A DNA stretch of 64,000 nt from Wickerhamiella versatilis (Eukaryota), in the NCBI GenBank assembly GCA_030867685.1, contig JAQOWU010000008.1, positions 3,286,001 to 3,350,000 of the forward strand. Reading direction: 5' to 3'. Below, one piece after another: positions 18,765 through 41,465 of the stretch; position 1 is the stretch's first letter, and each line of letters begins with the position of its first letter. Under the pieces are notes generated by a model. The model saw only the letters and a list, made by a program, of their open reading frames with translations. It was not told the origin of the DNA and did not search any database. The translations under genes were made by a program, and so were the position numbers.

Positions 18765-18796
18765 TAATTTCAATACTTAGGATAGAAAATTTGTTA

Positions 18797-19483
18797 TCAA
18801 ATCTTTGAACGGTGTCGTTTCTGAGCCACTGCTGCCTTTTCTCCTTGTTTGATATCTGCAGCAGCTTTGTTATCGGCGTCGACACGCTTAGGGATATAAT
18901 CTAAAAGCTTCGGAACAAGACTAGGGGAAAATGAGGCCACACCATTTTCATCTGCCACTACCACATCGCCTGGATTCACGTATTTTCCACCGATTTTGAG
19001 GGGCTTGTTTATAGCTACCACTTTTGCCTGTTTGTTTGGAGCACATATGCCGACACCGTACGACCATACTGGATACTTTAGATCACAATGCTCAGCAACA
19101 TCTCGAATCTGTCCACATACGACTGTGGCAGCGCAATTTAGATGCTGAGCTCTCGTTGACATGAGGCCCCCATATAGGGAGCAACTTAAAGACGTGAATG
19201 GTGCAACCTGCAATTGGCACTGCTCAGCTGTGGCAATGACAATTACGCTGCCACTAGGAGCAGAATCGATGTAGTGCTCTTGCACTGCCGGCCTCGGATC
19301 CGATTTCGGGGCATATTCCACTGTATACGCAGGACCAACTTTAGTGGCCTGAGGACCGCTTTGCTGCCGCAAGTATGGCAAAGCGCCACCGTCATCTATG
19401 CCTGAATAGACCAGCCCATCAGCTATGTCGCAAGATCCGAATCGTGCAAAGTCACTATACATTGTTAAGCCTACTTTAATCAT
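18797..19483 (-). CDS. RraA/HMG-CHA aldolase family protein (YER010C-like)
   Basis: CDIADGL, GPAYTV, YGGLMSTRA, GQIRD and PGDVVVADENG motifs. Start could be the second Met (19462). Confidence 0.9.
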   Translation of the reverse strand: MIKVGLTMYSDFARFGSCDIADGLVYSGIDDGGALPYLRQQSGPQATKVGPAYTVEYAPKSDPRPAVQEHYIDSAPSGSVIVIATAEQCQLQVAPFTSLSCSLYGGLMSTRAQHLNCAATVVCGQIRDVAEHCDLKYPVWSYGVGICAPNKQAKVVAINKPLKIGGKYVNPGDVVVADENGVASFSPSLVPKLLDYIPKRVDADNKAAADIKQGEKAAVAQKRHRSKI

Positions 19484-19486
19484 GAC

Positions 19487-19665
19487 TACTGTACCTCAAA
19501 CCAGGTCATCCCCGCTTCATGGGTAGTCAGCCGAAGCGACAGCCTGAACGACGATGGTTTTAAGCGAGTATTCGATCTAGACACCAGATACTCCAGAGGA
19601 GCACTCATATTACGCCAAGCTTTCGCCCCATGGGCATGGGGCGAGTCTTGTGAGAGGTGTCATAA
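19487..19665 (-). ncRNA. Candidate box H/ACA snoRNA
   Basis: Minus strand reads hairpin, ATATGA (H-box), extra hairpin, long hairpin capped by C(UUCG)G, then ACA+3 nt. Confidence 0.55.
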
Positions 19666-19694
19666 AATATGGGAAAAAACCCAGCTTGGTCAGC

Positions 19695-20501
19695 ATGCCG
19701 CCTCTTTCCTTGAATGACCAGCTGAACTCTTTCAAGCAAAAGGTGCGTCATGCTCCAGTTCTAGGAAAGAGAACGGTTGAGCCATCTGATAAGGGGTCTG
19801 ATGCTAACTCGGGGGACTCGTGGGAGCCTCTCTCGAAGCGCAGTAGGGGTGCCGTGCACTCCCAACCGGCCTCAACAGGGATGGGACAGCACCGTAACAC
19901 TCAGGTTGTACATGCAGTAGAGTATCTGAAGAAGCTTGAAACACCTGTGTTGTTCCGTGACCTTGAGTCGTACTTGTCTGGACCAATTCAGCCGCTCATT
20001 CCTCTGCTTCAGAATAACCCGAACCTGCGGGTCGACCTTCGTAACCAGACGGTGACATACGTATCAAAGCTCGGAATATACTCTGGTGAGGAACTGCTTC
20101 GTTATCTGCGTAACCAAAAGACGTTTAGCGGTCTTTCGGTGAAGGACCTGAAAGACGGTTGGTCTGGGGCCGTTCCGACTGTTCTGAGGCTGGAAAATGA
20201 TCACAAGTTGCTGGTTCTACGAAACAAAAAAGACAATAGCCCCAGGTTTGTGTGGGCAAATACAGAACAAGGCCTTGGAAGCATAGACCCTCGATTCGTG
20301 TCGCTTTGGCAGTCAGCGAAGGTCCCCACAGCATCGGATCTGCCTAAGATGTTGGAAAAAGTGGGCCTTAAGCCTTCAAGTATTGATCCAAGTGAAATGA
20401 AACAAAAGCCAAAGCAGGAACCAGAGAAGAAGCAACGCCGCGCTCCCCGCTCTAAAATCACAAACGTTCACATGCGTGGCCTTCTCAAAGACTTTTCCTA
20501 G
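19695..20501 (+). CDS. TFA2: TFIIE beta subunit
   Basis: HAVEYLK, ELLRYLR..TFSGLSVKDLKDGW and KITNVHM.GLLKDFS motifs. Confidence 0.93.
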   Translation: MPPLSLNDQLNSFKQKVRHAPVLGKRTVEPSDKGSDANSGDSWEPLSKRSRGAVHSQPASTGMGQHRNTQVVHAVEYLKKLETPVLFRDLESYLSGPIQPLIPLLQNNPNLRVDLRNQTVTYVSKLGIYSGEELLRYLRNQKTFSGLSVKDLKDGWSGAVPTVLRLENDHKLLVLRNKKDNSPRFVWANTEQGLGSIDPRFVSLWQSAKVPTASDLPKMLEKVGLKPSSIDPSEMKQKPKQEPEKKQRRAPRSKITNVHMRGLLKDFS

Positions 20502-21074: not shown

Positions 21075-21121
21075 ATAATTTTTGGTCTTTCTTATTACAT
21101 AATACAATTCCTATCATTTAT

Positions 21122-28890: not shown

Positions 28891-31797
28891 ATGTTACCGA
28901 ATGGAAAAAGAGTTGCAGTGCCGCCTGTGAGCCCGACTGGTTCGGCTAAGCGGATGGCTACCGCAACTTATCCAGGTTCTCAGCCTTATAGCACTAAAAC
29001 ACCTGCACTTGAGTTACGGTCCCCTTCTGAATGGCAGGAGACTATGCAGAAAACCGTGCGCTCAGTGGTAAGTATTCATTTCTCCTCTGTCTGTCCATTT
29101 GATACAGAAAGTACATATGTGAGTGAAGCCACCGGATTCGTTGTTGATGCAAAACGAGGAATAATCATGACCAACCGGCATGTTGTGGGGCCCGGTCCGT
29201 TTCGAGGTTTCGCAATTTTCGATAATCATGAAGAGACCGATGTTTCTCCAATATATCGCGATCCGGTTCATGACTTCGGATTTCTCAAGTTTGACCCGAA
29301 TGGAATTAAGCACATGGCAGTGTGTGATTTGAATTTGCATCCTGAACATGCACATATAGGTGCTGAGATACGCGTGGTAGGAAACGATGCTGGTGAAAAG
29401 CTCTCTATATTAGCTGGTTTTATATCGCGTCTTGACCGAAATGCCCCCGAATATGGAGACCTGACCTACAATGACTTCAATACCGAGTACATACAAGCAG
29501 CAGCATCTGCCTCCGGTGGATCTTCGGGGTCACCTGTGGTTGACATAAATGGTGATGTACTCGCTCTGCAGGCGGGTGGATCTAGTGTTGCTTCCACCGA
29601 CTTCTTCTTCCCGCTTTATCGAGGTGCACGAGCATTGGAGTGCATACAAAATGATAAATTTATCACACGTGGCACGATTCAGTGCCAGTGGCTTTTAAAG
29701 CCGTTTGACGAGTGTATGAGATTGGGTCTAAGCGCCGATTTGGCCCGTGAAATGCGCAGCCAGTTCCCCGAAAACATTGGCTTATTGGTGGCTGAAACGG
29801 TTCTTCCTGACGGCCCAGCAGCATCATCAGGCATTGAAGAGGGTGATTGTCTCATTTCTGTGTCTGGCAAACGGATTGGTCGGTTTCGTGATCTCGAGGC
29901 CATTCTGGATGAAAGTGTCGGGGAAACACTAGACCTCCTAGTACAGCGAAGTGGAGAGAATCTTAATCTTTCAGTAAAGGTTCAAGATCTCCATAGCATC
30001 ACTCCGTCCCGCTTTGTTCGGGTCGCTGGTGCCGTTTTCAATGACCTTAGTTACCAGATCGCACGGTTATACGCCATGCCTACTCGCGGGGTATATGTTG
30101 CACATTCAGGTCTCTACTTTAGGCCTGATCATGACACGACAGGCTGGCTCCTTGAGGAGCTTGATCACAGGCCGACTCCTGACCTTGACACATTCATAGA
30201 TGTTGTGCAAACTATTCCAGATACCAAGAAAGTAGCGGCCAAGTTCCGACATGTTACTGACCGCTCAACAGTGATTACGTCGGTGGTGGATATGGATAGA
30301 CACTGGTTCCCTGATCTAGAAATTGCCCAGCGTAACGATAAAACCGGATTGTGGGACTTCCACACTGTAGGCCGAGCCCTACCACCAGCGGAGATTGAAA
30401 AACATCAGAAGGCACGGTTCCCTAATCTGGCTGCATTAGGTGAAGGTCCATGTGCAAAGCTTGTGCGTAGCATTGTGAAAGTATCCATGACATCACCTAT
30501 ACCCCTTGAGGGTTTCCCGTTGACCGATGCGCGTCAATATGGCTTCGTCATTGATGCCGATCGTGGACTTGTTCTTGTCTCACGTATGTGTGTTCCGCAT
30601 TATCTTGTGGATGTATCCATCACTATTGCGGAATCAGTAATTGTCCCCGCACGTGTTTTGTTTTTGCACCCTCAACAGAATTACGCGATTTTGCAATATG
30701 ATCCAACTCTGGTGGATGCACCTATCGAGCCTATTTCTCTCAGCAGGGAAAGAGTCAAGCAAGGTCAAAATCTTGTCTTCGTTGGCTATGACTCAAAAGC
30801 CAATGCCCTGGTTACTGACACGAAAGTGATGGATGTTGCCTCAGCCCAAATTCCAGCAGGCTTTGACGTGCCACCTCGCTACAGAGCTACAAATATAGAT
30901 GCAGTCGGTGTTGATTCGACATTGTTGACCGAACTAAGCTCAGGCCTGCTGGCAGACCCGCGAGATGGGACGGTGAGGGCAATTTGGATGAGTTTCATGG
31001 GTGATGTTGTTGTATCTACAGGTCATGACCGTATTTTCCGCTTGGCGATGGATGCTGCGGATTTCCAACTTGATTTCTCCGAGCATCGTTTCGTCGACGT
31101 AGAGGTACGTGCTATCACCATAGCCGCAGCGAGAATACGTGGCGTGCCCATTGGTTGGCTCGAATCAGTGCAGTCCGCAGGTGGAAACCGTCCGTTAGAA
31201 GTTCAAAGAGTTACTAGCTGGTTACAGGACCGTATTGTTGAAGGCGATCTCATTATGGCAATAAATGGGAATGTCGTTACTTCAGGCATCCAATTGTTTA
31301 ACCTCCAAAGTCCTGAGGTCGAGATCACTCTTATTCGTCGTGGAGAGGAGAAAAAGGTTACCGTGCCTACCAAAAAGCCTAGCGACATGGAAACGAAGAC
31401 TGTGGCATATTGGAGCGGAATGATAGTGCATGAGCCTCACCATGCGGTCCTTCAGCAGGTTAAGAATCCGCCAAAGGGTGTATATATTGGTTCCGTTATT
31501 CGTGGATCGCCCGCGAATCAGTACGGTTTGTGGTCAACGTCTTTTGTAACACACGTCAATGGAGCACCTACTGCAACGATAGATGACTTTTATGCTGCAG
31601 TAAAGGACATTCCTGATAATACTTATGCGAAGCTGCGTACAGTCTCCTGTGAAGGTATTGTAACAGCATGCTCTGTTCGCTCCAATTACCATTATTTCCC
31701 GACATGGCGTAAGGACTTTATCGATGGGAAATGGATGGATATGGAGCCCAATTCATCTGATGAAACTGCTGCAAAGCCGTTAGCCCAAGTCGATTAG
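28891..31797 (+). CDS. NMA111: HtrA-like nuclear serine protease Nma111
   Basis: TNRHVV, RDPVHDFG and GGSSGSPV catalytic motifs; duplicated protease/PDZ architecture. Confidence 0.97.
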   Translation: MLPNGKRVAVPPVSPTGSAKRMATATYPGSQPYSTKTPALELRSPSEWQETMQKTVRSVVSIHFSSVCPFDTESTYVSEATGFVVDAKRGIIMTNRHVVGPGPFRGFAIFDNHEETDVSPIYRDPVHDFGFLKFDPNGIKHMAVCDLNLHPEHAHIGAEIRVVGNDAGEKLSILAGFISRLDRNAPEYGDLTYNDFNTEYIQAAASASGGSSGSPVVDINGDVLALQAGGSSVASTDFFFPLYRGARALECIQNDKFITRGTIQCQWLLKPFDECMRLGLSADLAREMRSQFPENIGLLVAETVLPDGPAASSGIEEGDCLISVSGKRIGRFRDLEAILDESVGETLDLLVQRSGENLNLSVKVQDLHSITPSRFVRVAGAVFNDLSYQIARLYAMPTRGVYVAHSGLYFRPDHDTTGWLLEELDHRPTPDLDTFIDVVQTIPDTKKVAAKFRHVTDRSTVITSVVDMDRHWFPDLEIAQRNDKTGLWDFHTVGRALPPAEIEKHQKARFPNLAALGEGPCAKLVRSIVKVSMTSPIPLEGFPLTDARQYGFVIDADRGLVLVSRMCVPHYLVDVSITIAESVIVPARVLFLHPQQNYAILQYDPTLVDAPIEPISLSRERVKQGQNLVFVGYDSKANALVTDTKVMDVASAQIPAGFDVPPRYRATNIDAVGVDSTLLTELSSGLLADPRDGTVRAIWMSFMGDVVVSTGHDRIFRLAMDAADFQLDFSEHRFVDVEVRAITIAAARIRGVPIGWLESVQSAGGNRPLEVQRVTSWLQDRIVEGDLIMAINGNVVTSGIQLFNLQSPEVEITLIRRGEEKKVTVPTKKPSDMETKTVAYWSGMIVHEPHHAVLQQVKNPPKGVYIGSVIRGSPANQYGLWSTSFVTHVNGAPTATIDDFYAAVKDIPDNTYAKLRTVSCEGIVTACSVRSNYHYFPTWRKDFIDGKWMDMEPNSSDETAAKPLAQVD

Positions 31798-41393: not shown

Positions 41394-41465
41394 CTTCCCA
41401 ACCAGGGGTCGAACCTGGAATCTTCTGATTCGTAGTCAGACGCCTTGCCATTGGGCCATTGGGAA
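41394..41465 (-). tRNA. tRNA-Arg(ACG), no intron
   Basis: Reverse complement TTCCCAATGGCCCAATGGCAAGGCGTCTGACT-ACG-AATCAGAAGATTCCAGGTTCGACCCCTGGTTGGGAAG forms a full cloverleaf. Confidence 0.96.

Follow-up and report, generated by a model that had tools for sequence, protein, structure and literature searches.

The intergenic gap examined here occupies positions 19484-19694 of a 64,000-nucleotide stretch of DNA (hereafter the window) from the budding yeast Wickerhamiella versatilis, whose genome comprises 9.88 Mb in eight contigs. It separates an RraA-like gene on the minus strand, for which the nearest named RraA homologues are those of Sugiyamaella and Nadsonia, from the divergent TFA2 gene on the plus strand. 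The features discussed below are as follows.

18797-19462, minus strand: RraA-like (PF03737) gene; likely start codon ATG 19462, longest frame from 19483.
19451-19486, minus strand: putative 3' extension of the snoRNA precursor, with ends at 19457 (34 molecules), 19451 (20) and 19452 (16).
19487-19682, minus strand: snR42-orthologous H/ACA snoRNA of 177-196 nt, according to which 5' end is used; predicted mature 3' end 19487 (ACA+3).
19490-19492, minus strand: ACA box, at a position conserved in homologues.
19502-19506, minus strand: 3' guide arm, five Watson-Crick pairs with own LSU 2891-2895; 14 nt to ACA.
19507-19556, minus strand: upper stem of the 3' hairpin, with a UUCG cap at 19535-32.
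19517-19546, minus strand: K-turn-like internal loop (as judged by sequence only), CA-GG (19546-43) opposite CC-CAU-GA (19523-17); GA-GG in homologues.
19557-19562, minus strand: 5' guide arm, six Watson-Crick pairs with own LSU 2898-2903.
19573-19578, minus strand: probable H box AGATCG, matching the AGA-box position of homologues, with G at position 6.
19580-19661, minus strand: predicted 5' domain, with a closing stem (19661-56/19585-80) around the 10-bp inverted-repeat hairpin and a hairpin at 19604-19588.
19661-19667, plus strand: TATA-like word, within the snoRNA gene and 31 nt upstream of the TFA2 start site.
19663-19682, minus strand: snoRNA 5' ends, among the ends listed, at 19682 (71 reads), 19670 (19), 19663 (15) and 19668 (10).
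19692-20501, plus strand: TFA2 (TFIIE-beta) transcript, encoding three Tfa2 domains; ATG 19695.

RNA reads over positions 19030-19990 were taken from four of 14 listed runs; run X12 is a poly(A) library of single reads, and run X2 covers two pieces of the RraA-like frame only. The 5' ends were called from loose ends of X12 reads that carry an adaptor, which we take to be the template-switch oligonucleotide. All six listed 5' ends, on both strands, fall at pyrimidine-purine steps, as expected for Pol II starts, and those of the snoRNA would be capped start sites. Most yeast H/ACA snoRNAs are reported to retain the cap (PMC5934358, excerpt). On the plus strand, TFA2 reads begin at 19692 (16 reads) and 19695 (11 reads), among the X12 ends listed; the mRNA leader is thus 0-3 nt long, and the ATG fits the conserved N-terminus. 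The TATA-like word at 19661-19667 presumably serves TFA2. The opposing snoRNA and TFA2 start sites are 9 nt apart. An earlier note, made from the DNA alone, had remarked that little free DNA is left here for promoters, and this was confirmed; yet such crowding is normal in this genome, as the ten divergent gaps of the window include others of 47 and 141 bp. The start codons of an RPA34-like gene and its divergent neighbour are only 47 bp apart (21075-21121); the neighbour resembles what we take to be mitochondrial uS5. At its other end the RraA-like gene converges on a DnaJ-X gene, with only 32 bp between the two stop codons (18765-18796), so that the 3' ends must overlap.

Every motif named in the earlier note is present on the minus strand: the 10-bp inverted repeat (19623-32/19635-44), whose loop of 2 nt means that 9 bp can form, ATATGA at 19610-05, the GAGTAT/ATACTC repeat, C(UUCG)G at 19536-31, ACA at 19492-90 and ATG at 19483. 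Moreover, its proposal of an H/ACA snoRNA, with the pocket arms, LSU target and approximate size that it gave, proved right on the grounds of the Rfam match, the pairing with the organism's own LSU and the reads. The best Rfam match in 1.2 kb around the gap is indeed snR42 (19.3 bits, E 0.018, model positions 259-341), which is also the sole snR42 match in the 9.88 Mb genome (E 0.036); it covers the 3' hairpin only, and its score is well below the RF01265 gathering threshold of 61 bits. At gathering thresholds, Rfam returned tRNA only over the 64-kb window (anticodon ACG, 41394-41465, minus strand). A covariance model built from 12 homologues gave the locus 47.4 bits, a score that was discounted because 21 positions match by construction of the search pattern; the second match of this model (31003-31064, minus strand, 10.5 bits, E 3.4) lies in a long reading frame and was set down to chance.

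The two pocket arms form six and five pairs at a single site of the own LSU, with U2896 and the next base left unpaired between them, and the arm-to-ACA distance of 14 nt is the canonical spacing that had been claimed. The 11-base bipartite target occurs once in the 3269-nt LSU and is absent from the window. With a constant offset of 79, all seven listed modifications at 2921-2959 fall on the right letter and U2896 corresponds to position 2975, which is the snR42 site in the S. cerevisiae 25S modification table (PMC8307265, excerpt). A metagenome scan for homologues yielded 58 loci, one of which (L004) scores 384 bits for snR42 and has TFA2 divergent at a distance of 299 nt. It is therefore the target and the gene order, rather than the Rfam score, that identify the RNA: its 3' pocket fits the 25S-2975 site and its gene is divergent from TFA2. 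The gap holds a real H/ACA snoRNA, the snR42 orthologue, at about half the usual length.

The likeness to S. cerevisiae snR42 (RF01265, clan CL00032, guide for 25S pseudouridine 2975) extends to the guide arms, the 14-nt spacing, the internal loop of the 3' hairpin, a multibranched 5' domain without a credible pocket and the divergence from TFA2. In contrast, the W. versatilis RNA is 177-196 rather than 351 nt long, its 5' domain is not alignable, its preferred predicted fold lacks a hairpin between the H box and the 3' hairpin, and its loop has C, not G, at position 2n. The setting differs too: 12 nt rather than 299 nt separate the RNA from the TFA2 ATG, and a tandem RraA-like gene lies behind it, where the Saccharomyces-type locus has a convergent mannosyltransferase gene. 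Loss of snR42 in S. cerevisiae is reported to have a mild effect (PMC1766470, excerpt).

The description of the gap as almost all structure holds in part: a folding signal exists (z = -2.19) but is modest, with 6 of 200 shuffles folding as well, and the 3' hairpin by itself gives z = -0.68. When the guide arms are kept open, the preferred predicted fold consists of the 5' domain, a hinge containing AGATCG and the 3' hairpin, which is the hairpin-hinge-hairpin-tail arrangement; covariation is seen in the 3' upper stem, and the 5' domain is a prediction. In homologues 94.6% of the cells of the upper stem pair, compared with 28-75% in slid controls, and three of the ten pairs show compensatory change. 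Among the RNA runs, the three that cover the 3' hairpin show no sequence differences in 19568-19487, and further 5' there are four, each of which either lies in a loop or changes a pair, to G-U or, in one case, to a mismatch. The long hairpin described at 19560-19498 is present but represents the closed form, with the guide arms paired to each other (19560-55 with 19503-19498); in isolation, the open pocket is less stable than this form by 3.8 kcal/mol.

Two further structural features were probably misplaced. With the pocket held open, the extra GAGTAT/ATACTC hairpin has a pairing probability of 0.03-0.06, and it would occupy bases of the 3' hairpin's lower stem; the competing hairpin at 19604-19588 reaches 0.74-0.93 for six of its seven pairs, and the closing stem of the 5' domain 0.26-0.67, varying with the 5' end. 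The H box had been placed at ATATGA (19610-05), which falls inside the predicted 5' domain. In fungi, box H is reported to vary at position 6 and to have G at position 2 in nearly 80% of cases (PMC5824354, excerpt). Since this is so and the AGA box of homologues maps to 19578-73, the H box is probably AGATCG; the sixth A of ANANNA, which it lacks, is also lacking in the AGATTG of 2 of 13 filamentous-type loci. When the 5' domain was scanned for pockets against the own SSU, ITS, 5.8S and LSU, no credible guide emerged: none of the 26 candidates fits the predicted fold, and the best of them (10 nt, at the ITS2/LSU border), one arm of which falls outside the stem, is by estimate no better than chance. 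Bases 19624-19615 (minus strand) match the end of the own ITS2, immediately ahead of the LSU, as a perfect complement of 10 nt, which is about what chance would give by estimate.

Mean X12 depth is 322 over 19459-19656 against 30 over the RraA-like frame (∼ 11-fold). Opposite-strand X12 reads start at 19451, 19452 and 19457, and these positions probably mark where tailed precursors end, 30-36 nt beyond ACA+3. ACA itself lies at its conserved place; the 3' ends seen are all extended beyond it, in libraries that are not of the small-RNA type. The extension overlaps the first codons of the RraA-like frame. Downstream of ACA there are two GTAG words and one TCTT, presumably Nrd1 and Nab3 words, a weak indication. 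Together, the 5' ends, the 3' ends and the depth step in X12 delineate a discrete small RNA, as do the X9 data more weakly. Independently transcribed yeast snoRNA genes likewise have their own starts and precursors that run tens of bases past the mature end (PMC6195540, PMC5934358, excerpts). In fission yeast such genes yield 3'-extended polyadenylated precursors with a median extension of 77 nt (PMC6195540, excerpt); the extension here is shorter and, unlike those, runs into the next reading frame.

The statement that the RNA ends 3 nt before the RraA start codon is true for ATG 19483, but among five close homologues (52-61% identical) four begin no more than one residue from Met8, that is ATG 19462, and only one fits Met1. 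ATG 19462 has A at -3, and is probably the start codon. Three observations favour a separate RraA-like mRNA start near 19470: X9 depth, 62 in the frame, declines to 20.6 over 19459-91; 6 of 20 X9 molecules start at 19455, comparable to TFA2 molecules, which start 12-30 nt inside their mapped start; and near the RraA start the antisense/sense ratio in X12 goes down to 0.43 from 0.87, as it does from 0.52 to 0.22 at TFA2. Most RraA-like mRNA molecules would thus have their own 5' end there. Some read-through from the snoRNA is nevertheless likely, because the depth between the two stays above zero, an X1 contig crosses the junction unbroken and the ratio of 0.43 exceeds the 0.22 of TFA2.

The earlier note had offered two readings of this arrangement, neither of which is likely to describe the main form of the RNA. 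The first is a snoRNA-mRNA dicistron; it is taken here to mean that most RraA-like mRNA would be read-through, and that the choice of 3' end at 19451-57 would set the ratio of snoRNA to mRNA. Continuous coverage in both X9 and X12, the single X1 contig running from the RraA-like frame to 19656, the strand ratio just mentioned and the absence of an RraA start site among the loose ends listed are all in keeping with this. However, a discrete RNA with its own ends and a depth 11-fold that of the coding region is not, nor are the ramping down of X9 coverage towards 19460 and the molecules that start at 19455; moreover, with read-through RNA as its leader, the mRNA would carry six AUGs ahead of its own and some -60 kcal/mol of structure. 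The dicistron is accordingly rated improbable. The second reading, a structured 5' leader that regulates the aldolase-like gene, taken here to resemble an H/ACA RNA by chance, draws on proximity and a shared strand and on nothing else. The guide arms fit the known snR42 target, homologues adjoin unrelated downstream genes, and the RNA accumulates as a separate species with its own ends, while the read-through RNA that could act as a leader would carry the same upstream AUGs; this reading is very improbable indeed. Least probable of all is a snoRNA in the first intron of the RraA-like gene, as, for all that a branch-point-like word and a TAG occur at 19457-55, the RNA has its own 5' ends, no 5' exon fits by eye, and the absence of splice joints, both among 669 + 1117 reads and in any of the four runs, refutes it unless a spliced form makes up < 2% of reads.

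The account we prefer, an independent snR42-type guide with its own transcript, is very probably correct. Transcription would stop ∼ 30-36 nt past ACA+3, among the opening codons of the RraA-like frame, after which trimming would take the tailed RNA back to ACA+3. The 3' hairpin, with Cbf5, Nop10, Nhp2 and Gar1, would then pair with both sides of LSU U2896 (S. cerevisiae U2975, in the peptidyl transferase centre) and direct its conversion to pseudouridine, and most RraA-like mRNA would start just behind the snoRNA. With the same high confidence, this is a guide RNA of a known kind and the regulatory reading of the gap is mostly not borne out.

In the homologous loci, the snoRNA gene is divergent from a housekeeping gene (TFA2, eIF4E or Med19) at L004, L006, L010, L018, L029, L047, L052 and L057; the arrangement at L050 looks alike, with a neighbour that has no Pfam match. 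In 9 of 13 filamentous-type loci (L006, L010, L012, L034, L038, L047, L050, L052 and L057), the 5' hairpin contains a second pocket, both arms of which fit an LSU site near own position 715. We take this to be the snR80 site 25S-776. In W. versatilis, snR80 was not found in the genome, and a search for a separate guide to the site near 715 gave seven pattern matches, against seven in the reversed control, none with an Rfam match. The filamentous loci with a second pocket look like double guides, a form that may explain why a fungal survey missed snR42 in Pezizomycotina; in the excerpts available, the survey reports that the guide for the snR42 site was not found in filamentous ascomycetes (PMC5824354).

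Next, the internal loop of the 3' hairpin was compared across 59 loci (the 58 and the window), using a filter that ignores the loop and asks for four paired bases above the pocket and an ACA 13-18 nt on. Seventeen loci passed, the window included. GA-GG lies 9-11 nt above the pocket opposite CC-CAU-GA in 15 of the 16 others (13 distinct), and the same loop occurs in 2 of the 42 loci that failed. On the 3' side the spacing is 10 nt in 16 of the 17, and in 9 of 14 loci the distal G stands 26 nt from ACA. Since the search pattern included CCCATGA, the conservation of that strand among the loci follows from how they were found; the pattern did not fix the GA-GG strand or the spacing. Both strands are upper case in the Rfam snR42 consensus. 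At the same distance in the window, the strict signature has a background of ∼ 0.2% of positions, or 0.7% with any base at 2n. One locus adjoins a Mediator subunit identical to a Scedosporium protein and others adjoin ascomycete eIF4E, so the loop spans budding yeasts and filamentous ascomycetes.

A loop of this sequence has the make-up of a simple K-turn (PMC4316175, excerpt). In the window copy, a G-A at 1b-1n (G19518/A19545), the bulge CAU and two G-C pairs can be read; at 2b-2n, however, there is A-C in place of the standard A-G, which is found in 15 of the 16 other filtered loci. K-turns of the non-standard Kt-23 class can have C at 2n (PMC4316175, excerpt). So read, the window copy is not classed as a standard K-turn. 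A close parallel lies in archaeal H/ACA guides. Stem-loop 1 of Haloferax volcanii sR-h45 has tandem GA steps, on the 3' strand a 3-nt bulge whose last base is U and, as in the fungal loop, ten bases on the 3' side from the first upper-stem pair to the distal G (PMC7075261, excerpt). The fungal RNA differs in being eukaryotic and two-domain and in having 9-11 rather than eight bases on the 5' side; the likeness lies in sequence and spacing. Moreover, Nhp2 is reported not to bind K-turns specifically (PMC7991803, excerpt).

The same loop recurs in snR10. The own snR10 orthologue (L070:1501-1675, plus strand; G000:C7:2103651-2103825) is 175 nt long against a 245-position model and scores 65.4 bits; its 5' hairpin contains a GA-GG / CC-NNN-GA loop with CAG as the bulge, and the 5' hairpin of the Rfam snR10 consensus also has the loop. 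The 3' end of this RNA coincides with the stop codon of a convergent gene. Afu_182, typed in Rfam as a plain sRNA, scores 65.5 bits over L070:1495-1673 and probably represents snR10 as it occurs in Aspergillus. In snR10 (RF01258) and Afu_182 (RF01496) the family and target differ from those of snR42, and it is the 5' hairpin that bears the loop, 24 nt ahead of the H box. Loop controls were sought in the genome among eight other H/ACA families in addition to snR80: snR34, snR5, snR189, snR37 and snR35 were not found there, snR30 (E 0.49) and SNORA27 (E 1.3) gave weak matches only, and of just two further control hairpins inspected, one carries the loop.

That the loop is something other than a K-turn, either a helper that pairs with the rRNA helix 93 loop near the target or the site of another factor such as the Npa1 complex, is about an even chance. 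A 5-bp duplex with own LSU 2883-87 (-5.0 kcal/mol) would be possible, but the pairing 5-mer occurs 13 times in LSU and five times in SSU, the conserved GA-GG strand would be left unexplained, and the CAG bulge of the own snR10 breaks the duplex (-3.6) yet keeps both GA steps. The C at 2n of the window copy also points away from a K-turn, as do features of the filamentous fungi, where pairing in a GGG/CCC register would reduce the bulge to 2 nt and where 3b-3n, U-C or A-C, has a bulge beside it, and the reported distance of 5-6 bp between pocket and motif in archaea (PMC2377435, PMC7991803, excerpts). Npa1 and Rrp5 cross-link to snR10 as well as to snR42 (PMC6136799, excerpt), so the loop may be another kind of binding site. 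We consider it possible, though only tentatively, that an archaeal-type K-turn is present in the snR42 3' hairpin and the snR10 5' hairpin, at the position bound by L7Ae in archaea. Among openly available papers, titles and abstract openings gave no K-turn in snR42 or snR10, and the passages and files read of two Rfam-wide motif papers do not mention snR42 or RF01265; an earlier description of the conserved loop is possible.

Overall, the guide RNA is an ordinary one of known type, packed very tightly between its neighbours, and the locus could serve as a compact model for promoters and terminators that overlap. The homologues show that filamentous ascomycetes do hold a guide hairpin for the 25S-2975 site, against the excerpted statement of the survey (PMC5824354). 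The wider value lies in the conserved loop, which is kept across budding yeasts and filamentous ascomycetes and is common to two unrelated guides. A 2021 review states, in the excerpt available, that eukaryotic H/ACA RNAs have no K-turns and that Nhp2 is no longer able to recognise them (PMC7991803). If the loop is a K-turn, it would contradict that account and overturn the rule; either Nhp2 would read a K-turn within the assembled particle or Snu13 would join a special class of H/ACA particle, and the K-turn could set apart the two peptidyl-transferase-centre guides that are found with the Npa1 complex and Rrp5.
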